Part shown: one piece after another, positions 36,977 through 58,427 of the stretch | Numbering within the stretch: position 1 is the stretch's first letter | Layout: every line of letters starts with the position of its first letter | IMG/VR virus record: IMGVR_UViG_3300028833_000099 | DNA from: a virus | Lineage: Duplodnaviria; Heunggongvirae; Uroviricota; Caudoviricetes | Direction: 5' to 3' (one strand) | DNA length: 64,000 nt | Position numbers and translations under genes: made by a program | Notes under the pieces: generated by a model | What the model saw: the letters and a program-made list of their open reading frames with translations, nothing else | Database searches by the model: none | Told to the model about the DNA's origin: nothing

Positions 36977-37061
36977 GTAGCGAGGGTTGGTTTCGAACCA
37001 ACGATGAGCCGAAGCTCCCTTCCTTATGAGAGAAGTGCGATAGACCACTCTGCCACCTCGC
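36977..37061 (-). tRNA. type II tRNA with anticodon loop CTCATAA (CAU)
   Basis: Acceptor GGCGAGG/CCTCGCT, Leu/Ser-like D-arm TGGCAGAGTGGTCTA, anticodon stem CTTCT/GGAAG and a long variable hairpin GAGCTTCGGCTC. Confidence 0.5.
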
Positions 37062-37134
37062 CATTAAGTAGCTGCGTCACTAGAATAAATCCGTTCACTA
37101 TGTTTAAGGTTGTGTACACATACCTACAGCTACT

Positions 37135-37722
37135 TTATCTTCTATCAACGAAATTTAAAAGAAGAAAACCATTTTCATTCTCATATTTCTTGATGTAGTA
37201 TCTATTTCTGAAACTAGATAGGATTGGAAGTAAACGATAAAACCAATTACTATTGCTCATATCAATAATGTTAGGAGTTCCGTTTTTCGCTTCATACTTA
37301 AAGGTATGCAACTTTTCCCCATCATATTTCCTATGACCACCTATATATTTAATGTTTGGATATATGGTTTCCATTATCCCACATATTTCAGAGAATTTTT
37401 TCTCAATTCTTTTGTATTCTGTGTCGTTATTCTTATCGTATAAAGACGCTTCAAAAACCACATTAAGAGTTACATCACCTTTATCATTGAGATATTTGAG
37501 CGTTTCATAGAATGAAAACAAATTATACTCATATTTTCCATTTTTTACAATGATATGGCAATGATTATCAGCATATAAATGGAAATCAAATAGTCTCACG
37601 CCACAATATGTATACTGCTCTTTGTAGTCTGCCGATTGGCATCTTCCAAACCATTTGAAAGCCTTAGACCACCATGTAGATGGTCTAAGGTATGTTAATG
37701 AATTATTAGACCCTATAAACAT
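37135..37722 (-). CDS. hypothetical protein
   Basis: 195-aa ORF. Confidence 0.45.
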   Translation of the reverse strand: MFIGSNNSLTYLRPSTWWSKAFKWFGRCQSADYKEQYTYCGVRLFDFHLYADNHCHIIVKNGKYEYNLFSFYETLKYLNDKGDVTLNVVFEASLYDKNNDTEYKRIEKKFSEICGIMETIYPNIKYIGGHRKYDGEKLHTFKYEAKNGTPNIIDMSNSNWFYRLLPILSSFRNRYYIKKYENENGFLLLNFVDRR

Positions 37723-37792
37723 TACTTACTTACACTATTAAAATATATTATTTTCTAATATATAATAAATATTCCCCACTTTTCAATAGTTC

Positions 37793-39088
37793 TTAATACC
37801 AAACTACAGATTTATCTTTTACCCAATTAGGGAATAATGTATATCTTGTGTAGATAGGCTCTCTTTCATCACACCATACGAATCTTGTCTCTACGGCAAT
37901 CTTCTCTGGAGCACGACCAGTCTCTACCTCAAGTTCAATAACGTTATTACCGTTCTTAACGATTACAGGAATTGACTTAACAGCATCTGCACCACTAATG
38001 TTCCAATTAGCTGCTCCCAAGTCAACTTTAAAGCTAACTGGAGCCTTAGATACTGTGTTACGTCTTGTGTTAACCATTGTACTAGTTGATACACCAAATG
38101 CTTCGTGAACCTCTTTACCACCAACAGTTAAAGGTAGTGTTCCACCAGCTGCTTGAAGTACTATGTAAGCAACAAGACGGTTGTCATTAAGTTCGCCATT
38201 CCACTCATTAGCTACCTTTGCGTCAAATACGACATCATTATAGTCGAAATCTGACTCAGAAGCACCAAGGTCTTCAGCAATGATTCTTACTGCACCTTCC
38301 ATGTTGTACATAGCAGGAGAAATTTTTACAATCCAATCATTGAAAACCCAATCCCTATCTACGTCCATATTAACATTAGCATCTTGTCCTACTGGATGGT
38401 ATCCAACAATGTCAAATCCGACATAATAAGCACCATCAATCTCAAGCACAATGTAATCATAGTGATAAGATGCATCTGATGTGTTATGATAACCAAATTG
38501 GTCTGCGACATCACCAGTACCCATGTTAATCATCAATGTTGTGCCGATAAACTTTTCATGTGTAACATCATCTGTATACTCAGTTGTGTTATTAGCGTTA
38601 TTGAAATTATAAACATGCTCATAACTATTTGTGTTATAGTTCCATGCAATAAGTTGGTTCATAACGCCACTAGGGAATACATGCGTTCCGTTTCCATCTA
38701 CTGAGTAATTAGTTCCTTGATAAACTTGCTGTACCCAATAGTTATCCCAAGGAAGGTTTATTGTGTGGGTTGCACCCTCACGAACCTTTGAAAACTCAGA
38801 AACAACCTTTGTTTTTTCTGCATCTGTAACGTTTACAGGACGTTCCCATTGCTGATACCACAAGTTACCATTAACATTATTCCCTCTTGTGGTTGCTTTT
38901 GTAAAATCGAACACCTTAATTGATTCATCGAATCCCCAAGTCTGTGTCTTGTCAATCTCACCAAAAGTTTTTGCGAACTCAGCTTCAAATTTGGCATTTG
39001 CTGCCTCTTGTGGGCTATAGTCAAAGTCATTCTTGTTACAAGCTGTAAATGACAAAAGGGCAATTATCCCAAAAATAATTTTTTTCAT
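37793..39088 (-). CDS. Bacteroidota-type lipoprotein
   Basis: Signal peptide with lipobox LLSFTAC, 431 aa. Confidence 0.55.
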   Translation of the reverse strand: MKKIIFGIIALLSFTACNKNDFDYSPQEAANAKFEAEFAKTFGEIDKTQTWGFDESIKVFDFTKATTRGNNVNGNLWYQQWERPVNVTDAEKTKVVSEFSKVREGATHTINLPWDNYWVQQVYQGTNYSVDGNGTHVFPSGVMNQLIAWNYNTNSYEHVYNFNNANNTTEYTDDVTHEKFIGTTLMINMGTGDVADQFGYHNTSDASYHYDYIVLEIDGAYYVGFDIVGYHPVGQDANVNMDVDRDWVFNDWIVKISPAMYNMEGAVRIIAEDLGASESDFDYNDVVFDAKVANEWNGELNDNRLVAYIVLQAAGGTLPLTVGGKEVHEAFGVSTSTMVNTRRNTVSKAPVSFKVDLGAANWNISGADAVKSIPVIVKNGNNVIELEVETGRAPEKIAVETRFVWCDEREPIYTRYTLFPNWVKDKSVVWY

Positions 39089-39829
39089 CGTTTCAATATT
39101 TTTTTAATTAAATTATTATAACTAATGTCGGTAGTCATGGATTTGCACCACTGCTGCCTAGGTCAACATTCTCGTACAATGTACTACTACCGTTGAGAAA
39201 CAAAAAGGTTAACCCCTATGCAATAGTTAGCTACGCCATTGCTAGTTGGATTAACCTTAAAAGCCCTTGCATCCCAATCTGCCTCACGTGCTGGCTAGGT
39301 GATACAAATATAAGTCTGTTAAACCACAAGCATAATTTTCTATTAATATATAATTTATTATATTATAGTTCTATATTATATTATAGTTCTATTTAAAGTG
39401 CTTGCATAATTATTCTATAGGGCTATTCATACCCCCTCCCATAGCATTAGGGTCTTGACCACCCATAGCGTTTGGGTCTTGAGGTATACCGCTTAATTGT
39501 CTAACAAAACTTTCCTTAAGACTTTTTAGCGTATTCTATGCCGTATTCAAAGAATTTCCTACATAACTCGCTCACTTGATTGTGCGTCATTAATGATGAT
39601 TCACCAAGTAAAGCTATCCTCAATTTCTTACGGAAATAATCTTGCATTTCTTTATCCTTTGACATCATCATAATTTTATTCTTATTTTAATAAGTTAATT
39701 TTTCAAGAAATTCATCTTCATCTTCTTCTTTAACATATATTCCCATATCGAAAATACATCTAGGTCTGCGATTCGCAAATTCGCACCTAAAATATAATTG
39801 ACATTTTTCATCACATGGTATCATAAATA

Positions 39830-40117
39830 TTATGTTTTAAGAAAATTATTTGAAATATCTTTTCCTTCTTTTCGTTGTTTTTTATTCTTTATATGCGATT
39901 CTATTTTTTCATACACATAAGACCATTTTCTAGTAACAGTCTTATACTGTTTAGCTTTACTCTCTGGAGTATCTAACTCTTTCCAGTTTTTCGCATGTCT
40001 CCATTTGTTAGGAGCATTTTTATCTTCGACATCCCAATAATATAGAACTTTTTTCAGCCTAGATACATATTTCATGTGGTCTTTCCACCTTCTATATGCT
40101 TTATCCCTAGTTTTCAT
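39830..40117 (-). CDS. basic hypothetical protein
   Basis: 95 aa, K/R/W-rich. Confidence 0.35.
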   Translation of the reverse strand: MKTRDKAYRRWKDHMKYVSRLKKVLYYWDVEDKNAPNKWRHAKNWKELDTPESKAKQYKTVTRKWSYVYEKIESHIKNKKQRKEGKDISNNFLKT

Positions 40118-40166
40118 AATTATAAATATTCGAATACGTACAAAAATAATTAGTATCTGAAATTAG

Positions 40167-40250
40167 AACACCACATGGGATTCGAACCCATAAGACCTTT
40201 CGATACCTCTTTAGGAGAGAGGGACGCTTCCAATTACGTGCTAGTGGTGC
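40167..40250 (-). tRNA. tRNA-like gene (anticodon loop CTCCTAA, CCU; extended variable region)
   Basis: Acceptor GCACCAC/GTGGTGT, anticodon stem CCTCT/AGAGG, T-arm ATGGGTTCGAATCCCAT. At 84 nt it is atypical. Confidence 0.4.
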
Positions 40251-40306
40251 GTTTTAATAAAAAAAAGGCTTATCATCCATTCTCCTAAATGATAAGCCTT
40301 AGTTTT

Positions 40307-40915
40307 TTAGTGTCTACCGAGTCTGAACCTACGATTCATAACGGTATCAGCACTCTCTGCCACTGGAGGATTCTTCCAAGGCTCGTTGCTTCCAAGAACA
40401 TCATCTTCAATAAGTTTTTTGTCTGATGGTGTTTCATCTTTCTCTAGCTTGCGAACAAAACGTCCGTTTGCGTCTCTCTGAGCAGTGCGCTGCTCCATTG
40501 CACGATAGTTAGCTGAAGCAACTTTATCGATGCTAGGACGTGCCACACGTACCTCTGGTCTACCACACTGACTCTGCCTTGGCTGTACGCAGCCATTCAG
40601 CAACTCAGTAACAACGCAAAGCAACACAGCCGAAGCAATTTGAAGCTCTGGAGTACTGTCAATCAAGTAAACGTGTCCACTACCACAGTCAAAGGCAAGA
40701 ATCGCATGCACACCATTACGTGCCTCATTGCGGATTGTACGTGCCTCTTCACTAGTGAGAGTAAGCTGACGAACCTCGTTAGGGCCAGTTGCACACTCTA
40801 CATGATTTTCAGAGAGGTGATAAATAACGAGACGGAGATTAGACTTGTCGCTGCACTGTGACAAAATCTCAGCCATAGGGCTGTTGTCAGAATGAAGTTT
40901 TGCGAATTTCCACAT
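40307..40915 (-). CDS. hypothetical protein in a GC-rich island, with C-terminal NGRFVRK motif
   Basis: 202 aa. Local GC is far above the window background. C-terminal RDANGRFVRK. Confidence 0.5.
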   Translation of the reverse strand: MWKFAKLHSDNSPMAEILSQCSDKSNLRLVIYHLSENHVECATGPNEVRQLTLTSEEARTIRNEARNGVHAILAFDCGSGHVYLIDSTPELQIASAVLLCVVTELLNGCVQPRQSQCGRPEVRVARPSIDKVASANYRAMEQRTAQRDANGRFVRKLEKDETPSDKKLIEDDVLGSNEPWKNPPVAESADTVMNRRFRLGRH

Positions 40916-41009
40916 AAAGTCTCTTATCTTTTTAAGTTAATACTTTGAAAAAAAGTAGGTAGCCATTTTGGTGGCTACCCACCTAGCTTAGATGCGCCTC
41001 TAACTTTGA

Positions 41010-41357
41010 TTACTGAGCGTCAGCAGCATCCTCATCGTCACCACCGAAGAACTCGTCATAAGTTGCCTGAGCAATCTTCAGTTCAACACCAAGCTCGTAG
41101 AGACGAGTCTTAGCATCCTGCAGGTCAGCAGCCCACTTGTTAGGATTCCAACCCTTTACACCAGGGCGCAGAGAATCAGTGGTGTCTGGAGCGAAGTCAG
41201 TCAGACCCTGAATCTGCATTTCAACATTGGTTTTCTCAATCTTGAGCTTGTGGATAATCTCCTCCTGGGCAATCTTTGCCTGAGTGTTAATTTGTGACGC
41301 ACGTGCTACAAGAGCTTTCGAGTCATTCTGACTCATCATCTGTAAAAACTTTCCCAT
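41010..41357 (-). CDS. coiled-coil protein in a GC-rich island
   Basis: 115 aa, GC-rich codons, an acidic C-terminus GGDDEDAADAQ and the same GC-shifted composition as ORF 40307..40915. Confidence 0.45.
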   Translation of the reverse strand: MGKFLQMMSQNDSKALVARASQINTQAKIAQEEIIHKLKIEKTNVEMQIQGLTDFAPDTTDSLRPGVKGWNPNKWAADLQDAKTRLYELGVELKIAQATYDEFFGGDDEDAADAQ

Positions 41358-41439
41358 TTTGTTTAAGTTTTAAAGTTAATAAAAATTGTGAATTGTGAAA
41401 TATTTGTCTGCAACTTTCGTTGCTAGTTTGTTTTTGTTT

Positions 41440-41600
41440 TACATTGCAAAGATATAAATTTTATTTGTAATTTCCAAATTTTTTCGTGTTAAAAACATTT
41501 AAAATTTAAACCTCATTTTGTATATTGTTTTCGTTTCCGAATCACATTGCAAAGATATAGAAAATTTTAGAGACTTCCAAATTTTTTCGTATTAAAAACT
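41440..41600 (-). promoter_or_regulatory. two tandem promoter modules
   Basis: Two copies of CATTGCAAAGATATA...TTCCAAATTTTTTCGT ~100 bp apart, upstream (minus sense) of gene 41010..41357. Confidence 0.55.
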
Positions 41601-41613
41601 GTTAATGTTTTAA

Positions 41614-42231
41614 CTACTTCCTTAAAATCAAAAGGTTACGTTTGTAATCAATAGAAATATCGTCACCTAGTTTTTTTAAAACGCTCATACCTAATAGTAA
41701 AGGAGCGTCTTGCTGTTCCATAACAACGCAAGGTATGTTATTAATCTTTATGCCTCCTACTTCTACCTCATTTATAATGATTGTATAAGACTTTACCGTA
41801 TCTCCATTGGCAATTCTACATTGACCACTCTCTAGAGTTGAATCATTGAGTAATTTTTGCTTTTTTAAGAACAAATACTCAACAACAGAAATAGAAATGT
41901 CGGTAGCACCAGTATCCAATGTCATTATCATCGGTATTCCGTTGATTTTAGTGGGAACAAGGTAGCAATTATTCTCATGCTGTAGTTTGACCGCTAATTT
42001 AAAATCATTTGGAACTTGTTTCAAAACCTTTGTGGTATCAGTCTTCGGTATTGTATCTGATTTGGCAATCTGAACCACTGTGGTCGTGTCTTTCTCGATT
42101 CCTAACGCCTTGGCTTCTAATGTATCATATGCTCTAGGAAATAGTTTAGAGAACGCCCAAATGAATCCCATCACTATTATAACCCCTAAAAAAAGTTTGG
42201 TGATACAACCAGATAATGTTATTTTTTTCAT
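41614..42231 (-). CDS. retropepsin-like aspartic protease with N-terminal TM anchor
   Basis: Active-site motif MTLDTGATDISI (DTGA). Confidence 0.65.
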   Translation of the reverse strand: MKKITLSGCITKLFLGVIIVMGFIWAFSKLFPRAYDTLEAKALGIEKDTTTVVQIAKSDTIPKTDTTKVLKQVPNDFKLAVKLQHENNCYLVPTKINGIPMIMTLDTGATDISISVVEYLFLKKQKLLNDSTLESGQCRIANGDTVKSYTIIINEVEVGGIKINNIPCVVMEQQDAPLLLGMSVLKKLGDDISIDYKRNLLILRK

Positions 42232-42241
42232 AAGTTTTTAT

Positions 42242-43225
42242 TTATTTAGCAAAAGTTTCAAATGCATCATCAACCAATTGCGAAACCATATCTATCTGGT
42301 ATGTCGCTAATTCGCTCCTAAACATTCTTCCACTCATTGTTCTTCTACCTTTCTTTTTCTTAGACACGAAAACTGTTTTACCACCTTTATTATCTTTCGA
42401 TGGTTTAAGCTGCTCGTCTTCAGTAGAATACCCAATATGGGTGAAACCTAAAAATGAACCGTTTTTCTCAATTTTGCAGAGTTCAACATGATTTGCACCA
42501 TATTTAAACTCTCCAGTACGAACCTTAATTTGTTTAATGTACCTTGTTGAGGGGTCTTTAAGACTCATACCAACTGCAAACATTGCATCAAAGAAATTAG
42601 TTAGTTTTTTACTACCACTTAGGCTGTTCTGCGTAAGTGGAGAACCCAAATTCCTTTTTGGCGTGTGCGAGAGAACTAGAATACTCATTCCGTATTTTTT
42701 CTTTAACGTACAGAGATTTTTCATAAGTTTTCCAGCAGTAGTTGCAGTATCTTTCATATTGACAAGCCAACTAAGGTTATCAACAATTATAATTTTTGAA
42801 TTGTATTTGTTAATGTTAGCCTCAATTCCACCAATAAGAACATCATCGAAACTTTCTTTTGTCGCATCACAATAATCTTTGACTGCATCTGAATCAAGTT
42901 CCACTCTAATGAACTTATCACTGAAATTAAAGGTATCCTTTGTTTTCTCGTCAGTATATCTAAGCTCAAACTGTTTTTTACTCAACTCAAAATCGTAGTA
43001 TAAAACAGTCTCACCGTTTTTCACTTTTTCAGCAATGGCATTACCAATCTGAACGGCAAGAATACTCTTACCTACATTTGCGTCAGCAAAAAGGCAACAG
43101 ACCTCATTTTCAAACCAAAACTCTTTCCAAAGTTTCTTGGGGTCTTTCTGCTCTTTCGCTTTAACAATTGTCTCATTGGCACTCATGCCACTGAATATGT
43201 CTGCTAAAGATGGTTTATTTGCCAT
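42242..43225 (-). CDS. RecA-superfamily P-loop ATPase (AAA_25/DnaB-like)
   Basis: Walker A ADANVGKS and Walker B-like IIVDNLSW. Confidence 0.6.
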   Translation of the reverse strand: MANKPSLADIFSGMSANETIVKAKEQKDPKKLWKEFWFENEVCCLFADANVGKSILAVQIGNAIAEKVKNGETVLYYDFELSKKQFELRYTDEKTKDTFNFSDKFIRVELDSDAVKDYCDATKESFDDVLIGGIEANINKYNSKIIIVDNLSWLVNMKDTATTAGKLMKNLCTLKKKYGMSILVLSHTPKRNLGSPLTQNSLSGSKKLTNFFDAMFAVGMSLKDPSTRYIKQIKVRTGEFKYGANHVELCKIEKNGSFLGFTHIGYSTEDEQLKPSKDNKGGKTVFVSKKKKGRRTMSGRMFRSELATYQIDMVSQLVDDAFETFAK

Positions 43226-43518
43226 TACTTTTGTATTAAAGTTAGAGTTATTTCGTTATTATCGTAGTTATAAACCCTATTAATTATTTTCCAATAAATC
43301 CCACCTAATACCACAGTATCGCCTAAATCCAATACTAATGCAGTATTATTAACGTAGAAATACATGTCATGCTTTACAAGTGTCCCACATTTAAGTATTT
43401 CTTTCAATGTGCCATCTGTAAAACCATCTGGACGAGGGAAATTCCCTTTAACGATATATTCCTCAATGAAGTCTCTATCTTCTGAAATATAAAATCTAGT
43501 TCTAGTATAATAATCCAT
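43225..43518 (-). CDS. hypothetical protein
   Basis: Start trimmed to MDYYTRT because the longer ORF runs into the tRNA-like region at 43535-43645. Confidence 0.35.
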   Translation of the reverse strand: MDYYTRTRFYISEDRDFIEEYIVKGNFPRPDGFTDGTLKEILKCGTLVKHDMYFYVNNTALVLDLGDTVVLGGIYWKIINRVYNYDNNEITLTLIQK

Positions 43519-43534
43519 AACGTTTTCTTTTAGA

Positions 43535-43645
43535 GTGCGGTAGAGGAATCGAACCTCTGTATTTGTCCTACCCATAGACGAATCACAATGTGATGGTGGG
43601 CTCGAACCACCTTTCATGAATCCTAACCACTAGATGAACCGCACA
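43535..43645 (-). tRNA. composite tRNA-like element with two T-arms
   Basis: 5' acceptor GTGCGGT plus D-arm, then an internal T-arm-like hairpin GGTGGTTCGAGCCCACC, then a second T-arm AGAGGTTCGATTCCTCT and the matching 3' acceptor ACCGCAC. At ~110 nt this is an interrupted tRNA or fused fragments. Confidence 0.35.
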
Positions 43646-43987
43646 TATAAAAACTGACTGCTAGGGGCAGACCCATTCTAATGTTTATCCCCTCTTAAAG
43701 TTGTACGCCCATAGGTATTATTACGTAATTATCCCCTATTGCTTTCAACGTCCTGTGGTACACCTTACTCAAATTACGTGCTCAACAGTCAGAAAAATTG
43801 TGGTGACTAGAAGAATCGAACTTCTACCAAAATATACGTTATCAGCAAATTTAAATTGCGATGTCTAGGTGTTTCCTAAGTTTATTTAAAGAGCGTTTTA
43901 TACTAGGGTCTTTCGCATTCACTCTCTAGTCTGCCAATAGTTTCATTCTGTAACCGTTTGTCACCAAAGCAAAGAAACTTTATTATT

Positions 43988-44431: not shown

Positions 44432-44475
44432 GCTATTGTTGTCCTAACCTTTAGACGAAGGGAGTATAGCGGTGG
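44398..44475 (-). tRNA. tRNA-like element (no clear anticodon stem)
   Basis: T-arm CGAGGTTCGATTCCTTG and a complementary acceptor. Its 3' end overlaps ORF 43988..44431 by ~34 nt, so either the ORF start or this element is wrong. Confidence 0.3.
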
Positions 44476-45941: not shown

Positions 45942-45959
45942 GCACTATATATTTCTTAG

Positions 45960-46032
45960 TTGCAGAAGATAGATTCGAACTACCGACCTCCCCATTATGC
46001 GTGGGGCGAGCTACCGACTGCTCCACTCTGCG
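45960..46032 (-). tRNA. initiator-like tRNA-Met (CAU)
   Basis: D-arm TGGAGCAGTCGGTAGCTCG is nearly identical to bacterial tRNA-fMet. There is a C1-A72 mismatch, the anticodon loop is CGCATAA and the anticodon stem is G/C-rich. Confidence 0.6.
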
Positions 46033-46138
46033 ATGCTATCTGTTTATATCGTCTATTATAGCAAAGACCTAAGTACCTAGAATGGTATCGAACTTTCAAA
46101 AGGTAATGGCCTGTCACCTAATGACTCTGATACCATCG

Positions 46139-46212
46139 TGGGCCTAGCAAGGCTTGAACTTGCGACCTTCAGATTATGAGTCTGCTGCTCTAACCAACTG
46201 AGCTATAGGCCC
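46139..46212 (-). tRNA. tRNA (CAU; elongator Met or Ile2)
   Basis: Perfect acceptor GGGCCTA/TAGGCCC, D-arm GCTCAGTTGGTTAGAGC, loop CTCATAA, T-arm GCAAGTTCAAGCCTTGC. Confidence 0.7.
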
Positions 46213-49385: not shown

Positions 49386-49689
49386 AAAAAAATATTTTTA
49401 TTACTATTTTAATTTATAGTGCAAAGGTACGAAAAAAAGTCGAACTAACCAAATAATTAGTCCAACTTTAACAATCTTTAACTTTACACTTGTTTTGCGC
49501 CTTGTTTATCTTAGGTCAATAATATAGAATAGGTTTACCTATACCAACCATAAAGGTATCCTCTTATCCATCAAGGAACTAGGGTAAGGGGCTAATCCTC
49601 GCACCGCATTACTGCTTCACCTACCATTTCTTACGTGGTTTGTGCTGTCTTACCTATTTCAGTACTTCACTTGAGTACACCAGCCGTAG

Positions 49690-49780
49690 TGAGCATAGTA
49701 GGATTCGAACCCACGATGAACTTTCTCAAGCCCATAACGGTTTTAGGGACCGCCACAATCGACCACTCTGCCATATGCCC
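49690..49780 (-). tRNA. type II tRNA with anticodon loop CCCTAAA (CUA), a candidate amber suppressor
   Basis: Acceptor GGGCATA/TATGCTC, Leu/Ser-like D-arm TGGCAGAGTGGTCGA, anticodon stem GCGGT/ACCGT, ~20-nt variable arm and T-arm GTGGGTTCGAATCCTAC. Confidence 0.5.
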
Positions 49781-50110: not shown

Positions 50111-50211
50111 AATGCAAATATATGAAAATTATTTTAAATAACAAAATATTTTCAATAGTTTTAACAAAAAAAAGCACTATAAGCTAAAGCCTATAGTACT
50201 TTTATATCGCA

Positions 50212-50815: not shown

Positions 50816-51024
50816 ATTTTTTCCTTTTATTAATTCGTTATATTCTTTAAATGTTAAAAACTTTACTTCACTTTTTTTCCCTAACGAATTAATTTTAGGA
50901 GTACCACGAACACGATTCAGCTACCAAAATTGGCTGAAAACCTACCAAAAACTGTTTTTCTTCATAATAATAATTTTTATTTTAATTAGTTAATAAAAAC
51001 GGAAGCATTTTCCTATGTCAAGGT

Positions 51025-51100
51025 GGTTGGATTCGAGCCAACGCAAGCGTTTCAAGCGTATACGGCTTATGAGACCGTCATGTTACCACTACATCACCCC
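51025..51100 (-). tRNA. tRNA-like element with anticodon-like hairpin ACGGT-CTCATAA-GCCGT
   Basis: T-arm GTTGGCTCGAATCCAAC with a CAU-type loop. The variable region is unusual. Confidence 0.3.
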
Positions 51101-51511
51101 ATGATTAATAAAACTTACGGATATACTTTATCAGGAATCTTGCTTTCTCTGCTGAAGACTTATTTTTACCTATCCACTCATAGGAACTTCACAGAGTGCT
51201 TCGCACACCATTAGGTAGCATCGAATGAGATAGTATTCCATACGCTAGTGGAACTATATAGACATTGTTACATACCTCAATCTACATTCTTCTTAGTGTG
51301 TACCCTTGCGACAAATGTACCCACGCTTGTATATCTACGCCTCTATCGTAAGTTTTATATTGAAGGGAACTTTTTTTCGGTTTTATTCGTTTCAAGCAAA
51401 TTCCATATAGTCATTGCTGTAAGTTCCCACTATTGGTTAAGGAATTGGAAACGGTAGAGCCACACTACGAAACTCTCTACCTACTCATCGTAGCATTATC
51501 CAAAACCTTAG

Positions 51512-51585
51512 TGGACAAGATGGGACTCGAACCCACGACCCTCTGAATGCAAATCAGATGCTCTAGCCAACTGAGCTACAAGCCC
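51512..51585 (-). tRNA. tRNA-Ala (UGC)
   Basis: D-arm GCTCAGTTGGCTAGAGC, anticodon stem TCTGA/TCAGA with loop TTTGCAT, T-arm GTGGGTTCGAGTCCCAT, G3-U70 wobble. Confidence 0.6.
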
Positions 51586-51719
51586 TAGAAAAATTGTTAG
51601 TTTTTTATACAGAACTAACAAACTGCATAGAGTTCTCAGCTTATTCGTCTTTAGTTTGCTCACTTTGAACCTCTTTTGTTAGTCAGAAGGAATCGAACCT
51701 TCATTACAACCATTTGACC

Positions 51720-52046
51720 TTAAAGAATTTCTACTACTTTTCCGTAGATTTGGTTTCTACCTACCCATCCGTTCATATGTCCGTGATTGTTACCAATAAG
51801 ATATTCACTATCATTTTTAATTGCATGGATTAGGTGCAGATAATGATGACCTCTAACTTTGCAAAGAACAATATTTTTCTTTTCTAGTTTTGTGTCATCT
51901 TTTACTGGTTCACATATAACCGCTTGTCTTGATTTAAGAATAGGGGCCATAGAGTTACCAATACCAGTTACTTTACACGTCTCACCTCCTCTGAGGTGAT
52001 TGCAAGTTTCTTGATTTTCGAAACCGCTATAAGTAAATTCTCTCAT
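51720..52046 (-). CDS. S24/S26-like serine peptidase domain protein
   Basis: GNSMAPIL resembles the GDSMxP catalytic-serine motif of LexA/UmuD/signal peptidase folds, with a downstream conserved Lys. Confidence 0.5.
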   Translation of the reverse strand: MREFTYSGFENQETCNHLRGGETCKVTGIGNSMAPILKSRQAVICEPVKDDTKLEKKNIVLCKVRGHHYLHLIHAIKNDSEYLIGNNHGHMNGWVGRNQIYGKVVEIL

Positions 52047-52192
52047 ATGTTAATTGTTTAAGTGGAGTATTGGAGATTCGAACTCCAAGAGGTCTTATGT
52101 TTCCCGCCTCTCGTATGGTCTTCTTATGCATGAAACCGACCAGCAGGTCACCACCCAACGTGTTTATACCCCATGAGAATTACTTATTGCAG

Positions 52193-52310
52193 GGACTGAC
52201 GGATTCGAACCGCCATCGTTTATTAACAGTTAAAGGCACACTCTGTTCCGAGGTCGAGAGTGCTTTATTCCTTAAAGCGCAACAAATTACTTTACCATTA
52301 AGCTAAATCC
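52193..52310 (-). ncRNA. elongated tRNA-like RNA (Ser-GGA-like anticodon hairpin)
   Basis: Complementary termini AGGGATT/AGTCCCT, D-arm-like GCTTAATGGTAAAGT, hairpin GCTTT-AAGGAAT-AAAGC, a long hairpin CACTCT...AGAGTG and T-arm GGCGGTTCGAATCCGTC. At ~118 nt it exceeds any tRNA. Confidence 0.3.
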
Positions 52311-53377
52311 CTATATAAATACAAAAGACTGAGAATGTTGTCTTATTGTTAATGCCATTTTACAAGCGTTGGAACTTGCTATTCACACGTCACCTTACGA
52401 TGAACGTAGACATCATGCACGGAAGTCTTGAGAAGACAACCAAGAATCTTACTAGTTTAAACCTTGCGGTGCAGCATCATAGCTTTCAGTTCTTCGCCAA
52501 GCTCTTGCGGATTCATAGGATGCCTCCTATTAACTCAGACGAGTACTTTTACACGCTCATTGAATTCCTTGCGAGTCCTCAATGTCTCAATATTTCATGA
52601 GAATAAGTGCATTTTAGCTGCCTAGTGTCGCACACTTTTGCTTAAATTGATTTTTGAATCATATTTATGTTCCGTAGGCGGTTTGGAAGACGAGGTGCGA
52701 CTAAGGACATCTGTAACTTTTGGCTACAGCCCATCCAATCGCCTCCCTGTGCTAGCTCACCACAAGCTATTCACTATTATACACCATCACCTCATATGAG
52801 TTCTTACACATTTCTATGTAAGACTAGTGCATAACTGAGTACAACACGCCAACTGGTGATTATTGCATCATACTCCATACAGTAATCTATCGTGTCACCA
52901 CTCATTCAAAGATTCCTCACCCTTGAAAATATACAACTTTGGTGTTACCCACATTGTATACCGTACTGTATGCTTTTCAGTGAAATACATGAGAGTTTCT
53001 CATATATCTGCAACGTTTACCGCTAGTACACGTCACATTTATCCCATCACTGGATTATCCTTCCATCTGGCTACGAAAGCTAGCCATTAGCCTCATATCT
53101 TTCGCAAGATATTTCCTCATGGAAATTGGCTTATTTCTTGAGTTTTTCATTCGTTTTCAGTTTATTATAATAGGTAAACTGCTTCCTCTTTAGAGGTGGG
53201 TTCATATCCCAAGCTCCTATTTTTTAGCCCTACATCGAATTTTTTTACCCAATACTTACTTTTTTCTAGTACACGTTCTCTAGAATATGGTTCCCGAAGT
53301 TACCATTGCTATGGATTGTTTAACCACATAAAACCCATTTTTACCGTTGTCTACGGCACGAAAAGGCATATCTCGTT

Positions 53378-53530
53378 GGTTAGAGCAGATTTGCACTGCT
53401 GAAGCTTCCGAAGAAACACATCAAGCACGAACTTGATGCCCATTTGTCTACATCGTCATTGCTGACGTTCTCCTCTGGTACTAACCAAAAGGTGGTTTTT
53501 TGACTTGTCCACCACAAGGTATAGTGTGTA
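53378..53530. repeat. ~150-bp structured element, copy 1
   Basis: Copy 1 (~53378-53530) and copy 2 (~53683-53835) are ~90% identical direct repeats. Compensatory changes preserve two helices: AGCAG...CTGCT versus GCTAG...CTAGC, and TTGGTTAG...CTAACCAA versus TTGGTAGA...TCTACCAA. Confidence 0.6.
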
Positions 53531-53682
53531 GTATTGTAAAGGCTAATTCATTTTGCAGAACTAATTTAATGGTAAAGGACATCTGCTATGTTTCATACAG
53601 TTGTGTGTTTGTCGCAACCTCACTTTCCTCGCCAACCTTTACTGCCGATTGCACCTGAGCGTTTATACTACATTTGTTGGTA

Positions 53683-53835
53683 GAGCTAGATTTGCACTAG
53701 CGAAGACTCCGAAGAGCCACATCAAGCACGAACTTGATGCCCATTTGTCTACATCGTCATTGCTGACGTTCTCCTCTGGTATCTACCAAAAGGTGGTTTT
53801 TTAACTTGCCCACCACAAGAATAGTTGCGGCAGTA
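53683..53835. repeat. ~150-bp structured element, copy 2
   Basis: Second copy of the element at 53378-53530. It carries paired substitutions that maintain the helices. Confidence 0.6.
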
Positions 53836-53899
53836 GGAGTCGAACCCACTGTTACTAGGTTATGAGCCTAGTGTGTAAACCGTTTCACTCTGCCACGAT
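53825..53899 (-). tRNA. tRNA (CAU)
   Basis: Anticodon stem CTAGG/CCTAG with loop CTCATAA and T-arm GTGGGTTCGACTCCTAC. The acceptor has a position 1-72 mismatch. Confidence 0.45.
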
Positions 53900-54040
53900 A
53901 TTATGTATTTAAATCGGAAACTTTTTCTAAACGTTTCAAAGTGACAATTTGATGTTAAGAATAGTTTGCTGTGAGTTTCCTTTATTGTTTTCAAATCAAC
54001 AATGCAAAGATATGAAAAATATTTTTAATATCCAAATTTT

Positions 54041-54310
54041 TTAAGATTTCTTTGCATTTTTGGCGAAATACTCTTTGAGTTTAGCCCATTCTGAAAGGAT
54101 GGTACTATATTCATCGGCACTAAGTAATACTTCCTCTTTGCCATGCTCAATACTATCTGCTTGCCCCCTAAGTTTATCAACTAAATTGATTTTAAGAGCC
54201 TCATAATATTTTACGCTAACAATATTAGTAGCTTCTCCTTTGCTATACCCAGCCTCTTGAAGGTTTTTATATAGTTCACTTCTGAAATCTTTATCTAAAA
54301 TTTTACTCAT
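54041..54310 (-). CDS. hypothetical protein
   Basis: 89-aa ORF downstream of the promoter at ~54338-54380. Confidence 0.4.
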   Translation of the reverse strand: MSKILDKDFRSELYKNLQEAGYSKGEATNIVSVKYYEALKINLVDKLRGQADSIEHGKEEVLLSADEYSTILSEWAKLKEYFAKNAKKS

Positions 54311-54390
54311 TGTATGTCTTTTTCTTTAACAGTGCAAAAATATACAAAATTTTTGAAAGTTCCAAATTTTAAGCGATTTTTTTAAAGATT

Positions 54391-54651
54391 TTAACATCTT
54401 CCTTCATATAAATCATCATAATTGGTTTTACCTCTTTTGAATATTGTAATATTTTTTGCGTCTTGGAAAAGACACCAACCAATTGTTGACAAACATATTC
54501 CCACGATAACGCCAATGCTTAACCATGACAATAAACCACATACAAATGCAGCAATCAAATCAGCAAGAGTTACGACTCTAAATTTTGGGCATCTAACAGC
54601 TAGTGTTAGAAAAAACGCAACAATGCATCCAATAAAATAAATACTTCCCAT
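54391..54651 (-). CDS. small membrane protein
   Basis: 86 aa with three hydrophobic helices. Confidence 0.4.
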   Translation of the reverse strand: MGSIYFIGCIVAFFLTLAVRCPKFRVVTLADLIAAFVCGLLSWLSIGVIVGICLSTIGWCLFQDAKNITIFKRGKTNYDDLYEGRC

Positions 54652-55165
54652 AACTAAATTGTTTTTTTACTTTAAAAATAATCAGCTACACGAACCTCTT
54701 CAATGTACTTATGAAAGATTCCCTTCCATACATGTTATACAGATTAACGCATGACTTATATCCTAATATAGCCTAACTTTACTGTAAAAGTTTACTTCAT
54801 CATCCAACCCTGACTGATTATTTAGTGGACTTGCGCAGAGTCGAACTGCGGTCCAAACAACCATTCCATAAGAAATTATACAAGCTTTGATTTGGAAAGT
54901 TGACAGCAAACGCTGCCCTCACCGCTACCTTATTTTGCGAAAACAAGGAAAACTATACAAAGATGACTAAAGAATAATGCTAGGGTGTTCTGTTCCTAAG
55001 AGCCTAGCCTCTCGGCTTACATTACGCAGCTATAGCGTACTCGTAAGCAGGAGAATCAACATTCTCGCCAGTTATATTTTTTTGCTATTGAAGTGTATGC
55101 CCACTGCTTGTTTCTTACCAAATGCATTGCTGTCAAATCCATTACAAGCCCATGATAAAAAATTG

Positions 55166-55239
55166 TCGAGAGGGTAGGACTTGAACCTACGACCTTCATC
55201 TTATCAGGATGACAATCTAACCAACTGATATACCCCTCG
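55166..55239 (-). tRNA. tRNA-Ile (GAU), copy 1
   Basis: Acceptor CGAGGGG/CCTCTCG, anticodon stem TCATC/GATGA with loop CTGATAA, T-arm GTAGGTTCAAGTCCTAC. Confidence 0.65.
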
Positions 55240-55379
55240 ATAAGCTAGTTTGTGGAATTCCGATTCTTCACCACACAAGTTTCACTAGACCTCCTAATGT
55301 TATATGCGTCCGTTATAGGATACCAACGTTATACGCTTGCCAATTTATTTATCGTACTGCGGAACTAGCTATATTCCTA

Positions 55380-55940
55380 TTACACGTCTTTAAATGCTTC
55401 AATAAAATGTTTCAAAATCATTGCATTTTCTATGACGCAAGTCGGAACTGCTTCTCTAAGGCTTTCAACATCCTCTTTCAAAATCATTTCTCTTACTTTC
55501 GTAGCAGAAAGACTATTATGGATAGTTCCTCTTGCATTAAGTTTGAATGATACGAAATCTCTCGTAATGAAAGGTGGAAACCACTGCATAATTATCTCAA
55601 AACCATCAGAGTAATATATTGTAAACTCTGGAGATTTTGTAAACCCAACAATGTGGCTATAGAGATAAAAACCCCAATCATGAGAATTGTCCGATTCATC
55701 TGTAAGGTCTGCTAATGGTTGTATTATAACCCTTTTAGAGTCCTCTTTAAATGCCTCTTCTATCGCCTTATTAGCGAGTTCCAATCTCATGGCAATTGGT
55801 ATTGGATTCCTTTTATTGAGTTTATCAGCAGAACCAACGAGCAGAAGAACATTTTCATTCTCGTTTAGTGCTTGCCGTATTAACTCAAGATGCCCTTTAT
55901 GTATGGGCTGTATTCTTGCAATGATAACACCTACTGCCAT
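55380..55940 (-). CDS. nadM: nicotinamide/nicotinate mononucleotide adenylyltransferase (NadM-type)
   Basis: N-terminal ARIQPIHKGHLELIRQA carries the (H/T)xGH nucleotidyltransferase motif, very close to archaeal/bacterial NadM GRFQPFHKGH. 186 aa. Confidence 0.75.
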   Translation of the reverse strand: MAVGVIIARIQPIHKGHLELIRQALNENENVLLLVGSADKLNKRNPIPIAMRLELANKAIEEAFKEDSKRVIIQPLADLTDESDNSHDWGFYLYSHIVGFTKSPEFTIYYSDGFEIIMQWFPPFITRDFVSFKLNARGTIHNSLSATKVREMILKEDVESLREAVPTCVIENAMILKHFIEAFKDV

Positions 55941-56437
55941 TATAAATATTGTTTTATGTTAAAAAAAAAATACGGAAACATGTTTTTAGAAATCAAAATT
56001 AAAAGTTTTGCTCTTAAAAATTCCTAATATTTGCTGTATGTTTCCTTAGTGCTTGTGATAGGATTTGAACCTACTGTACCCCACTATAAGATGGCGTGTG
56101 TCTGCCAATATATCACCCCTCAAGCATGTTTCGCCTACTGTACCCCTTCGAGCCATCGCAGACTTGTCTTGCATTAACGTAGTTAAGACCAATATACGGC
56201 ATTCTTAATCTAAAGTATGCTTACGAGCACGTTATAAAGAATATGGAGTTGTTTAACTTGTCCTGTTTATAAACCCCTAACGTACAAAAGGTTATTTTTC
56301 AGTATATCTAAAATGAAAACCACAATGAGGGCATAAAAACACCTCACCATTCTCATCAATCGCATTGGAAACGTCAATTTTGACATGATTTCCACATCTT
56401 ACACATTCTACTTCCATAACATTTATTTTTATAATGC

Positions 56438-56495
56438 AAAGATATGTAAAAAAAATGAAATAGCCAAATATTTTAACATTTTTTTTTATGAAAAA
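56438..56495 (-). promoter_or_regulatory. promoter module
   Basis: AATGCAAAGATATGTAAAAAAAATGAAATAGCCAAATATTTTAAC. Related modules lie at 54003-54045, 54338-54380, 56758-56805 and 60043-60105. Confidence 0.55.
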
Positions 56496-56506
56496 GTAGG
56501 GTATGA

Positions 56507-56577
56507 CGGAATCGAACCGCCCTTCTTAGGATGTAAGCCTAATGTCCTTCCGATGAACGAATACCCTAGTTTGGCAC
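56507..56577 (-). tRNA. tRNA-Val (UAC)
   Basis: Perfect acceptor AGGGTAT/ATACCCT, D-stem GTTC/GGAC, anticodon stem TTAGG/CCTAA with loop CTTACAT, T-arm GGCGGTTCGATTCCGTC. Confidence 0.65.
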
Positions 56578-56814
56578 GAACATCTTGTCATATACACATT
56601 GTATATTACTAGACAAACTCAGTGCCTTTTCCGTAAGTTTATTAGCCTATTAGAGACCAATCTTGCCTTTGTACTTATAAGCAAACCAACCTACAACGCC
56701 ACCAATGATAAACTCAATCATAATCGTAATTTATTTAGTTAGACATTTAATTTAACAATGCAAAGATATATAAAGTTTTTGAAAGTTCCAAATCTTAATA
56801 GTTAAAATATGTTT

Positions 56815-57402
56815 TTAATCAGATAAAATATATTCACGTTCCGCATCTGTTAGTGGCGCATGTTTTCCTTTGACTACTTTCTTCGTGCGTACTTTTTTAT
56901 TTTCACGAGTTATAGCGTTTTTCCCATCACCCCAACGATATTGAAGCCATCCTTCATATTCACCAGTATCAAAAACATAGTCTTTAGGTATTTCGTCTTC
57001 GCCCCTAAATAATTCATCAAGCATTCTAAGACTTACTGGTTCTGACCCCCAAATTCCTATACCATATTTATGATATTTATAGATTCCGTCACCACCAACC
57101 CTAATAACTTTTTCTTTTTTAAAATCAAGGACAAGGTAGCCCCAAAATCTACTGTTTATTTCAAATTCCCATGTTTTCTCATGGTATTTAGAACCCTCTT
57201 TCTCTACTTTATACGGTCTAGGGGTATCTGCATATACATCTTCAATTAATTCTACTTCCTCTTTCCATTCTGATTCAGTATCAAATTCGGCTTCAGAATA
57301 AGTATATTCTTTAAGATTAAACAGCCCCCTCATATCTTTTGCAGACAGAGACTTTCCCCACATAGAGAAAATGACCATAAATCGTTTTGTGTGCTTTTTC
57401 AT
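56815..57402 (-). CDS. hypothetical protein
   Basis: 195-aa ORF. Confidence 0.45.
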   Translation of the reverse strand: MKKHTKRFMVIFSMWGKSLSAKDMRGLFNLKEYTYSEAEFDTESEWKEEVELIEDVYADTPRPYKVEKEGSKYHEKTWEFEINSRFWGYLVLDFKKEKVIRVGGDGIYKYHKYGIGIWGSEPVSLRMLDELFRGEDEIPKDYVFDTGEYEGWLQYRWGDGKNAITRENKKVRTKKVVKGKHAPLTDAEREYILSD

Positions 57403-58151
57403 GCTTCTTTTCTTTTCCTAAATGACATTTTTAAATCAAAACCGTGAGAAAGAATCTTTCCTTCATTCGTTTGGGATTTCATTCCATCTGGAAAACCAAA
57501 CAAATTTGTGAATACATCATTTTTAAACTCTGAAATCTTTTCTTTATTATATAGTTTTGTTCCATACATGAAATTAATAATATCATTCAGAACCTTTTCC
57601 AAATCCTTTATAAAATGGTCTGGCATTCCATTACCACTTAAATCCCAAGGTCTTGTATCATGGCATATTGAAGTATTGTTGTACGAAACAAGATATTTTA
57701 TTTCATACCTACCACCGTCAAAAGTGATAATATATCTCTTTCTAATGCCGCATTCATCATAAGTCGTTTTATAACGTATATCGCTTTCATTTTTAAAATA
57801 ATAGAAACCTAGGGGCGATTTACATTTTATCTTACATTTCCGTCTCCCCTCTTTAGATACGATTCTATCACCGTTTATAATCTCCTTACGTTCACCAACA
57901 TGAAAAAAAGATTCACTATGAGTGATTGAATATGAGTCTATTGTGTGATTATCGTATTTTTCAATAATAACATCACAATTACTGAATAGTATTTTTTTCT
58001 TTTCAATTACTTTATCATTCATTGTCAAAACAATTTCTAACGGCTTTAAAAGGCCAAAAAAATATAAAAAGCATGAGCAATAACGTAGCCATTGCATCTG
58101 ATGCATCACCACGTTCTTTTGCGTACTCGTATTCTGCCTTATACTCATCAT
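57399..58151 (-). CDS. hypothetical protein (C-terminus paralogous to 32828..33592)
   Basis: C-terminal SHGFDLKMSFRKRK matches the other ORF. Confidence 0.45.
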   Translation of the reverse strand: MMSIRQNTSTQKNVVMHQMQWLRYCSCFLYFFGLLKPLEIVLTMNDKVIEKKKILFSNCDVIIEKYDNHTIDSYSITHSESFFHVGERKEIINGDRIVSKEGRRKCKIKCKSPLGFYYFKNESDIRYKTTYDECGIRKRYIITFDGGRYEIKYLVSYNNTSICHDTRPWDLSGNGMPDHFIKDLEKVLNDIINFMYGTKLYNKEKISEFKNDVFTNLFGFPDGMKSQTNEGKILSHGFDLKMSFRKRKEA

Positions 58152-58338
58152 TCCACCACATAAATGCTAGCGATGTTCCAATTACAAAATACAAAATAGT
58201 AATAATATATTCAATACTCATAACAATAGAGTAGGCTTCCTCTACCTACCACGACAGTTAACGGTTTTTGTTAGTTCAAGGTACTAATAGACCAAGCGCA
58301 GTGCTCTGTTACACCGTAAACACCGATAAGGATTATCG

Positions 58339-58427
58339 CACACAGGGCAGGATTCGAACCTGCGGTAGGATTTTAAACCTACGTTAGTTTTGGAGACTAA
58401 TGGGTTAAACCACTCCCCCACCTGTGT
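58339..58427 (-). tRNA. type II tRNA with anticodon loop CTCCAAA (CCA)
   Basis: Acceptor ACACAGG/CCTGTGT, anticodon stem TTAGT/ACTAA, variable hairpin CGTAGGTTTAAAATCCTACCG, T-arm GCAGGTTCGAATCCTGC. It has a Leu(CAA)-like body with C35. Confidence 0.45.

Follow-up and report, generated by a model that had tools for sequence, protein, structure and literature searches.

In textbooks and reviews (PMC9976931 among them), the long variable-arm hairpin of class II transfer RNAs (tRNAs) is held to belong only to the serine (Ser), leucine (Leu), tyrosine (Tyr), and selenocysteine (Sec) isotypes. Serine identity rests mainly on this arm and on tertiary shape, and seryl-tRNA synthetase (SerRS) ignores the anticodon; C2-G71 is an antideterminant against SerRS, as is G73 against LeuRS and TyrRS (PMC9976931). 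The major elements of tryptophan (Trp) identity are the discriminator (G73 in E. coli and B. subtilis), the anticodon, and the initial base pair, and for methionine (Met) the anticodon CAU is sufficient for MetRS (PMC9976931). The known exceptions to the class II rule, called nev-tRNAs and allo-tRNAs, are thought to be charged against their anticodons. Nev-tRNAs, reported by Hamashima et al., are nematode or eukaryotic tRNAs of class II shape that bear class I anticodons and are said to be charged with Leu. Allo-tRNAs are bacterial and phage-associated molecules found in metagenomes that combine long variable arms with many non-serine anticodons; their acceptor and T-stems are arranged as 8/4 or 9/3, their D-arms are Sec-like, their discriminator is G73 or U73, and serine is the amino acid they are predicted to accept (Mukai et al. 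2017; PMC5389517). Here we describe long-arm tRNAs with the anticodons CCA, CAU, and CUA in a 64,000-nucleotide (nt) stretch of DNA, hereafter the window, from a Caudoviricetes virus (IMG/VR record IMGVR_UViG_3300028833_000099). Our best explanation, held with somewhat more confidence than doubt and drawn from sequence, is that the CCA and CAU genes are working elongators that would decode as Trp and Met, in agreement with their anticodons, on a class II architecture. The CUA gene would be a separate, conserved amber suppressor.

Five long-arm tRNA genes were identified in the window:

58338–58427, minus strand: long-arm tRNA(CCA) without an encoded CCA end (ARAGORN; Rfam, 58.1 bits and alignment)
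36977–37062, minus strand: long-arm tRNA(CAU) (ARAGORN; Rfam, 46.9 bits and alignment)
49689–49780, minus strand: long-arm tRNA(CUA), candidate amber suppressor (ARAGORN; Rfam, 48.1 bits)
51017–51103, minus strand: second long-arm tRNA(CAU) (ARAGORN at a relaxed threshold; Rfam, 46 bits)
40166–40250, minus strand: long-arm tRNA(CCU), arginine (Arg) (ARAGORN alone)

An initial annotation had placed long-arm tRNAs with CAU, CUA, and CCA anticodons at the first three sites, and ARAGORN together with Rfam/Infernal finds all three there, on the minus strand. That listing left out the last two genes, and the CCU gene is not reported by the Rfam tRNA model at its gathering score (29 bits). The anticodon register, which if shifted might have yielded ordinary Leu or Ser anticodons, is the same in both programs, and no such alternative was found. 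ARAGORN places the anticodon at position 35 of the gene in the CAU, CUA, and CCA tRNAs, and Infernal aligns CAU and CCA with positions 34–36 of the 7-nt loops CUCAUAA and CUCCAAA and assigns the additional bases to the variable region.

In the long-arm genes, the acceptor stem has 7 bp, the T-stem 5 bp, and the D-stem 3–4 bp with a 9–11-nt loop (ARAGORN). G18G19 is kept in the three genes named above, and the T-loop is GGTTCGAAT in the CCA and CUA genes and GGTTCGAAA in the CAU gene (36977–37062). In the structures bracketed by ARAGORN, the variable arm of the CAU gene is a 4-bp stem with the loop UUCG, that of the CUA gene an 8-bp stem with the loop GAGA, and that of the CCA gene a 5-bp stem with an 8-nt loop; these hairpins are recovered in minimum-free-energy folds. 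Unpaired bases on the 3′ side of the arm number about three for CAU and one each for CUA and CCA, compared with the Ser-type arm of 5–7 bp and one unpaired 3′ base. In the CCA gene, a single unpaired base lies at each end of the stem, and the D-arm is of class II type.

The CCA tRNA combines three Trp-type marks: the anticodon CCA in its 7-nt loop, G73, and a weak first pair, A1-U72. Its acceptor stem, ACACAGG/CCUGUGU followed by G, continues with C-G at 2:71 and A-U at 3:70. It departs from tRNA-Trp in the class I core, which has a variable loop of 4–5 nt. A sister genome (L002, IMGVR_UViG_3300021256_000001), a 295-kb contig ∼99% identical to the window, carries at this locus a 77-nt class I tRNA with the same CUCCAAA loop, with no difference in the flanks (100% identity) as far as the ends of the gene. 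We read this swap as a sign that the long-arm and class I Trp forms would be functionally interchangeable. An exchange of this type is also seen among Arg genes of related contigs. The CCU gene is a paralog of long-arm Arg(ACG) and Arg(UCU) genes that the sister genome carries immediately past the window end; such paralogs occur in L002 and L389, whereas in the relative L390 both Arg(ACG) and Arg(UCU) are class I. The sister genome encodes in this adjoining region two long-arm Arg(UCU) genes, a long-arm Arg(ACG), and a long-arm threonine (Thr) tRNA(UGU), along with ordinary Leu(UAG), Leu(AAG), and Tyr(GUA).

The long-arm CCA allele recurs unchanged in a separate metagenome contig (Ga0326514_10069286), and the nearest neighbors of the window gene are other phage long-arm tRNA(CCA) genes. 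Neither this gene nor the CAU gene at 36977 has a BLAST match in the cultured-phage collection, and a 20-kb megablast against 50,697 deposited phage genomes returned generic tRNA segments only and no close relative. The Trp locus is one of three tRNA-cassette polymorphisms that lie within ∼17 kb between the window and the otherwise 99%–100% identical sister genome:

window 51000–51720, sister genome 16427–17034: cassette difference
window 58338–58427, sister genome 9738–9814: cassette difference
window 63115–63244, sister genome 3673–4782: cassette difference

At the last of these, the Ser(UGA) allele of the sister genome differs from that of the window, and next to it is an extra open reading frame (ORF) of 304 amino acids (aa; 3862–4776) whose HNH motif scores 22.2 bits against Pfam HNH_3, less than the cut-off. 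The tRNA genes of this island behave as exchangeable cassettes, with homing endonucleases as their possible movers.

The CAU gene at 36977–37062 belongs to a family with an identical copy in contig L376 and further members, L382–L385, in large phage contigs (46–412 kb). Within this family, 14 of 24 pairs are changed on both sides with pairing kept. The D-arm and anticodon arm are nearly invariant, A73 is invariant, and the variable arms have 3–4 bp; in L383 a wholly different variable arm is joined to the same body. The window gene, with acceptor strands GGCGAGG and CCUCGCU followed by A, has the CAU, A73, G2-C71, and C3-G70 of the elongator-Met pattern, without the class I core or a strong G1-C72. 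It also lacks the initiator marks: 1:72 is G·U, and the anticodon stem (CUUCU/GGAAG) is without three closing G-C pairs. The second CAU gene, at 51017–51103, is of a different, initiator-like family that also occurs in crAss-like phages. Its relatives are L159, L205, and crAss001_t23, and a C1×A72 mismatch is seen among relatives. The window copy has two acceptor-stem mismatches, a folding free-energy z-score of 0.01, and a best fold that is not a cloverleaf, and the sister genome, where interval 51000–51720 is replaced, lacks it. This copy is possibly decaying.

Directly downstream from the long-arm CAU gene lies a body resembling a cysteine (Cys) tRNA(GCA) (36892–36951, minus strand) that matches the tRNA model at positions 7–64 only. 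Complementary 9-mers, AAGAAGCAU ∼15 nt upstream and AUGCUUCUU ∼4 nt downstream (flanks 36875–36975), suggest a displaced or extended acceptor helix. In the relative L001, a leucine-rich-repeat ORF (11370–12330; BspA-like by eye) occupies the site of window ORF 37135–37722 and the CAU/Cys-like tRNAs, and this tRNA pair is therefore not syntenic there.

To place these genes among viral tRNAs, IMG/VR was scanned with the pattern CTCCAAA-N22-34-GGTTCGAATCC, where long forms were tRNAs of ≥82 nt with the anticodon CCA. There are at least 99 long-arm tRNA(CCA) genes (99 of 120 among the matches listed), 76 of them distinct, or 77 with the loci of a second scan pooled. Among these 77, the combination of 1:72 pair and discriminator is A:U with G73 in 43, G·U with G73 in 18, and U:A with G73 in 6; class I phage Trp tRNAs (n = 29) have the first combination in 18 cases and the second in 6. 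G73 plus a weak first pair, the Trp signature, thus characterizes 61 of the 77 long-arm genes and 24 of the 29 class I genes. Phage Ser tRNAs have G:C with G73 or U73, Leu tRNAs G·U or G:C with A73, and Tyr tRNAs G:C with A73. At 15:48, G-C predominates in long-arm Trp tRNAs, whereas most class I phage Trp tRNAs have A-U.

The same pattern applied to 596 Gb of species-representative genomes gave long forms in 13 of 120 among the matches listed, five of them in loci with 11–18 tRNAs, and with these counts a native cellular long-arm tRNA-Trp was rejected as a candidate. Judged from the listed scan matches, long-arm tRNAs are enriched in viral contigs. Three genes from the genome contigs (L325, L340, and L346) differ in kind: their long-arm CCA tRNAs have Ser-type G1-C72, G73, and an encoded CCA-3′, and lie in loci of 1–3 tRNAs. 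These could be Ser-identity tRNAs that read UGG in cellular genomes.

Long-arm tRNA(CAU) genes number at least 108 in IMG/VR (108 of 120 among the matches listed; 92 distinct in the scan and 98 pooled). Nearly all have A73. G2-C71 is present in 75 of 98 and C3-G70 in 61 of 98, as in class I CAU tRNAs, and the window copy at 36977 has both. Long forms also appear in other isotypes when counted among the distinct tRNAs that share loci with those selected: isoleucine (Ile; UAU), 10 of 23; Cys, 14 of 45; histidine (His), 10 of 36; asparagine (Asn), 16 of 72; Thr(UGU), 8 of 39; lysine (Lys; UUU), 9 of 53; and Arg(UCU), 4 of 31. They are rare or absent for Ala, Gly, Asp, Glu, Val, Phe, and Gln. These long forms keep the discriminator proper to their isotype: G in 14 of 16 Asn genes, U in 12 of 14 Cys genes, C in 9 of 10 His genes, U in all 8 Thr genes, and A in Lys, Ile, and Arg. 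The identity marks therefore match the anticodons, and long-arm phage tRNAs probably decode normally.

The arms themselves fold better than shuffled sequence, with mean z-scores for the variable region of −4.3 (Trp), −2.2 (Met), and about −3 (Ser), and GNRA loops cap 40 of the 77 long-arm Trp arms. Most long-arm Trp arms have 3–4 bp and either three unpaired 3′ bases, which is Tyr-like, or one. The idea that arms are confined to isotypes one mutation away from a class II anticodon was dropped, by reasoning that many armless isotypes are also one step away.

The three genes had initially been viewed as a family derived from one Leu tRNA by single-base anticodon changes. This proposal does not hold, given that they are only 52%–53% identical to each other, which is as distant as they stand from the phage's own Ser(GCU) (43%–56%), that all three have G15-C48, and that their cores score poorly against Leu. 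A15-U48 is present in 94 of 100 pooled phage Leu tRNAs and in the phage's own Leu tRNAs. Nor are the bodies Leu-like: each gene has a Ser-type (AGUGG-type) D-loop along with the G15-C48 pair. The CAU and CUA tRNAs do have A73, the Leu-type discriminator, and the CCA tRNA has G73. The acceptor set of Ser is likewise absent from all three; in the phage Ser pool, G-C occurs at 1:72 and at 2:71 in 79 of 88 genes each, and A-U at 3:70 in 72 of 88.

The CUA gene is best considered separately. Its acceptor stem begins G-C, G·U, G-C at 1:72, 2:71, and 3:70, and its anticodon loop, CCCUAAA, has C33 in place of U33. The gene is identical in the sister genome. In the L001/L159 relative, whose DNA is 67%–80% identical to the window across aligned blocks, the ortholog has a wholly different but compensated anticodon stem and D-stem, with the loop, including C33, and the variable arm unchanged. 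This conservation with fully compensated stem changes upholds the suggestion that the gene permits nonsense decoding, and the CUA tRNA is a plausible suppressor. Its core is closest to tRNA-Ser and its arm geometry is Ser-like, yet it has A73 and G2·U71. Such a Ser-like scaffold lends itself to suppression, since the anticodon is read by neither SerRS nor LeuRS. Candidates for the residue inserted at UAG are Ser, Tyr, or Leu, and a class II scaffold with A73 makes insertion of Gln unlikely. The window is compatible with the standard genetic code, and its 73 stop-to-stop ORFs of at least 100 codons end in TAA (51), TGA (13), or TAG (9). Recoding of TAG within the 64-kb window was rejected: sense TAG adds little coverage, and the TAG-ended ORFs extend by only 0–27 codons.

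Several explanations compete with normal decoding. One, raised at the outset, is that the CCA and CAU tRNAs are missense decoders, charged by SerRS (or LeuRS) through their class II shape so that Ser (or Leu) is placed at UGG and AUG. Partial serylation is the main rival because the cores are Ser-like, with the Ser-type D-arm and G15-C48, and because the CCA arm matches phage Ser in its 5 bp and single unpaired 3′ base; G73 is compatible as well, and SerRS is arm-dependent and anticodon-blind. The Ser-type acceptor ends of L325, L340, and L346 also indicate that true mismatched tRNAs may exist elsewhere. However, the CCA tRNA lacks the G1-C72 and G2-C71 of phage Ser tRNAs and carries both the C2-G71 and the G73 antideterminants, Trp-type acceptor ends are present family-wide, and a class I tRNA-Trp stands at the same locus in the sister genome. 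The CAU family, with its invariant A73, short 3–4-bp arms, and 2–4 unpaired 3′ bases, is unlike Ser, none of the three genes has the A15-U48 of Leu, and discriminators of other isotypes track the anticodon (Cys U73, His C73, Thr U73). With A1-U72/G73, the class I Trp swap, and Trp- and Met-type acceptor ends recurring across phages, we consider missense decoding by these genes unlikely.

Another explanation accepts the CAU tRNA as functional but not as an elongator Met: it would be either an Ile2-type tRNA, with C34 converted to lysidine so that AUA is read, or an initiator variant. Codon usage leaves room for the former (AUA, 27.6, and AUG, 25.1 per 1000 codons in window ORFs), and the latter is suggested by the weak 1:72 pair (G·U, A-U, or U-A) in all five members of the 36977 family and by a 1×72 mismatch in about half of the 98 long-arm CAU genes. 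Weak or mismatched 1:72 pairs reportedly favor formylation, according to work from the RajBhandary laboratory. An Ile2-like class I CAU gene is already present at 46138–46212, though, and the sister genome has an Ile(UAU) gene; as noted above, the anticodon stem lacks the three G-C pairs of initiators, and G2-C71, C3-G70, and A73 fit the general CAU/Met pattern. Both variants seem quite improbable to us. The genes could also be decoys or decaying pseudogenes that translation does not use and that would serve, at the most, to absorb nucleases or synthetases. The five CAU tRNAs of the window are redundant, several tRNA-like genes of the island are irregular, and the damaged copy at 51017–51103, absent from the sister genome, would suit such a view, which may still apply to it. 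But the other three genes have intact cloverleaves, G18G19, T-loops, 7-nt anticodon loops, and discriminators matched to the isotype. Between diverged phages, the CAU and CUA families have evolved in a compensatory way, and the CCA allele is unchanged in an independent contig. This covariation and family-wide conservation contradict the pseudogene proposal of the initial annotation, and we regard the decoy or pseudogene explanation as very unlikely. Even more remote is an explanation at the DNA level, in which the arm disrupts a homing-endonuclease or recombination target, or hitch-hikes with cassettes, and has no function in RNA. The three cassette sites and the HNH-like ORF beside the Ser(UGA) allele of the sister genome accord with this, as do a putative HNH endonuclease directly upstream of tRNA-Gly and the long-arm tRNA-Met in crAss001, the action of T4-type SegB in tRNA regions, and the freedom of arm sequence to vary (L383). 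Yet there is no endonuclease gene at the Trp locus, where both adjoining ORFs are common to the two genomes, and the HNH match falls below the Pfam cut-off. Selection on RNA can be argued because the arms are kept as hairpins with stable tetraloops, compensatory changes, and matching class II D-arms.

We therefore favor normal decoding of the CCA and CAU genes as Trp and Met. TrpRS would read the anticodon, G73, and first base pair, and MetRS mainly CAU, these being the presumed charging enzymes. The class I core would therefore be unnecessary and the extra arm tolerated. Several points weigh against this reading. When anticodon and variable arm are masked and the cores are compared with canonical reference tRNAs only, the nearest isotype is phage tRNA-Ser for all three genes (scores of 28.8, 30.6, and 22.4; Ser control, 31.0; Leu, ≤17). 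SerRS could also charge the CCA tRNA because of its 5-bp, one-base arm, G73, and A3-U70. The consistently weak 1:72 pair of the 36977 family is atypical of elongator Met, and because the window already has three class I CAU tRNAs, the long-arm CAU gene is superfluous for decoding Met. A promoter motif described below makes a host from the Bacteroidota probable, and the reading depends on the identity rules of that host. Finally, long-arm Trp and Met genes seldom share a fetched locus, and for this reason the arm is not a mark that phages carry across the whole genome.

Why the arm is kept is a separate matter. The arm would make phage tRNAs unlike those of the host, which may permit escape from tRNA-targeting nucleases or toxins, or from the phage's own depletion of host tRNAs. 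Our preferred guess, by analogy and from gene neighborhood only, is that the arm is kept for escape from tRNA-targeting defense. The idea fits because RNA-repair and NAD-salvage genes are nearby and because there are precedents in the tRNA-Tyr variable loop and in anticodon loops. Septu cleaves tRNA-Tyr in its variable loop, and T5 tRNA-Tyr is reported to resist retron-Eco7 through a distinctive variable loop; changes in the anticodon loop have been proposed as a phage tRNA escape from tRNA-targeting defense. A bolder, tentative proposal, which we hold to be doubtful as a whole, is that class I tRNAs for Trp, Met/fMet, Cys, His, Asn, Thr, Lys, and Arg were on repeated occasions remodeled by phages into class II-shaped molecules with each isotype's determinants retained, the arm serving as a self/non-self anti-defense mark. 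If true, the arm would be a structural anti-defense strategy distinct from anticodon-loop mutation. The arm also offers a candidate surface for the arms race over tRNA-targeting defenses.

The surroundings of these genes are phage-like. Nearly all ORFs of the window are on the minus strand, the GC content is ∼33%, and a transfer-messenger RNA (tmRNA) and at least 23 tRNA or tRNA-like genes are present (ARAGORN, Rfam). The ORFs that adjoin the three tRNAs gave no function in PHROG and Pfam searches. Other features that bear on the tRNA island are as follows:

18465–19871, minus strand: ORF for a CCA-adding enzyme, 468 aa (Pfam PolyA_pol, 2.6e-25; PolyA_pol_RNAbd; HD)
14909–15820, minus strand: ORF for an RNA ligase, 303 aa, in a tRNA-repair context (Pfam RNA_ligase, 1.7e-13)
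62100–62187, minus strand: tRNA-Ser(GCU), canonical comparator with G1-C72, G2-C71, A3-U70, G73, and a variable arm of 5 bp that leaves one 3′ base unpaired (ARAGORN)
63143–63234, minus strand: tRNA-Ser(UGA), canonical comparator (ARAGORN); the sister genome has another allele beside the HNH-like ORF
45959–46032, minus strand: class I initiator-like tRNA(CAU) with a C1×A72 mismatch, a CCCC/GGGG anticodon stem, and the loop CGCAUAA, with G33 (ARAGORN)
46138–46212, minus strand: class I tRNA(CAU) (Rfam, 71.9 bits; ARAGORN)
53825–53897, minus strand: class I tRNA(CAU), a second initiator-like gene with a C1×A72 mismatch in the Infernal alignment (ARAGORN, Infernal)

A CCA-adding enzyme, the phage's own or a host equivalent, is needed because no long-arm tRNA encodes a 3′ CCA, as read from the 3′ flanks. 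The gene for this enzyme and that for the RNA ligase are part of an RNA-repair and NAD-salvage cluster, all on the minus strand (3449–4327, 12553–13776, 14909–15820, 18465–19871, and 55380–55940), whose products are a metallophosphoesterase (3449–4327), NAPRTase, the RNA ligase, the CCA-adding enzyme, and an NMNAT-like cytidylyltransferase. NADAR, NUDIX, HIT, CinA, and DHFR domains are also found among window ORFs, as is a 701-aa protein (23234–25339, minus strand) with C-terminal ankyrin repeats (Pfam Ank_2 and Ank_4, ∼1e-5), which are unusual in a phage protein.

The motif TTTGG-N∼19-TAtcTTTGCA is repeated at 10 or more minus-strand sites of the window (near 54003, 46488, 56422, 45525, 41436, 33913, 36729, 10825, 54315, and 56747). 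We take it to fit the Bacteroidota promoter consensus (TTTG / TAnnTTTG), and its distribution suggests that it marks transcription units of the tRNA island.

Among the class I CAU genes, the initiator-like tRNA at 45959–46032 has G33, compared with U33 in its L159 ortholog. That at 46138–46212 presumably resembles bacterial tRNA-Ile2 and E. coli ileX. Just downstream (in the direction of transcription) from the one at 53825–53897 is a direct repeat of ∼145 bp (53375–53518 and 53676–53819); each copy is 90% identical to sister-genome positions 14330–14473 and 14631–14774. The tmRNA (54823–55151, minus strand; Rfam, 78.9 bits), which encodes the tag peptide GENVDSPAYEYAIAA, is also present in the sister genome. 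Three further tRNA-like genes, all on the minus strand, are irregular. In a 123-nt Rfam tRNA match at 52190–52312 (42.1 bits; sister genome 15884–15960), the acceptor, D, and T arms are intact, the anticodon region is GUU-like, and the ∼46 nt inserted contain a strong hairpin (GCACUCU...AGAGUGUGC); the match possibly represents a tRNA-Asn-like gene that is interrupted or bears an intron. The gene at 56049–56125, conserved in the sister genome, has an 8-nt anticodon loop, CUUAUAGU, in which ARAGORN assigns the 4-base anticodon uaua. The 86-nt gene at 16056–16141 is disordered in its anticodon and variable region.

Long-arm tRNAs of this kind are also found in cultured phages:

CcrColossus (JX100810) 59240–59325: tRNA-Trp, 86 nt, long arm
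CcrColossus (JX100810) 133537–133623: tRNA-Met, 87 nt, long arm
crAss001 (MH675552) 5721–5807: tRNA-Met (crAss001_t23), 87 nt, long arm, of the same family as window 51017–51103
Kehishuvirus 'tikkala', a phage related to crAss001: tRNA-fMet, 87 nt, long arm

These genes resemble those of the window in length (86–88 nt), long arm, and CCA or CAU anticodon, and were annotated by anticodon alone. BLAST matches in RaK2 and a Ruegeria phage turned out to be ordinary Ser(UGA) tRNAs. Our literature search returned no description of long-arm Trp or Met tRNAs in phages and no paper remarking on the arm. CcrColossus with Caulobacter and crAss001 with Bacteroides are cultured systems that carry such tRNAs. 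Annotation of viral tRNAs with isotype models is likely to flag long-arm genes as mismatches or pseudogenes.

Comparison with described systems sets these tRNAs apart in several ways. They share with class I tRNA-Trp and tRNA-Met/fMet the loops CUCCAAA and CUCAUAA, G73 (Trp) or A73 (Met), a weak A1-U72 or G·U pair (Trp), and G2-C71/C3-G70 (CAU), but their variable region is a hairpin of 11–20 nt rather than 4–5 nt, and the D-arm, with 3–4 bp, is of class II type. Like the class II tRNAs for Ser, Leu, Tyr, and Sec, they have a long variable-arm hairpin, a Ser-type D-arm, and a tRNA-Ser-like core. Their anticodons, however, are outside the Ser/Leu/Tyr set, and their acceptor ends are neither Ser-type (G1-C72, G2-C71, A3-U70, G73) nor those of Leu-type (A73, A15-U48) or Tyr-type (G1-C72, A73) tRNAs. 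Allo-tRNAs are also phage-associated and place long arms on non-serine anticodons, whereas the window tRNAs have a 7/5 rather than an 8/4 or 9/3 layout and discriminators that match their anticodons. Nev-tRNAs likewise join class II shape to anticodons of class I amino acids; they are eukaryotic, and the phage tRNAs, unlike them, keep isotype-matched determinants. If the normal-decoding reading is right, class II shape and amino-acid identity would be uncoupled in nature for at least nine isotypes, and long-arm scaffolds could serve as naturally tolerated handles for tRNA engineering.

For the CUA gene, a parallel is offered by the suppressor tRNAs that gut phages use to reassign UAG (PMC10879173). 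The CUA tRNA is likewise a phage-encoded, putative amber suppressor, conserved among relatives, but TAG is an ordinary stop in this window and the CUA scaffold is class II. Phage tRNAs that evade defense offer the remaining comparison. As in those cases, the long-arm tRNAs would differ in structure from host tRNA and thereby resist nucleases. The known cases are point differences in existing loops or arms, whereas here a whole arm is present in isotypes that normally have none.

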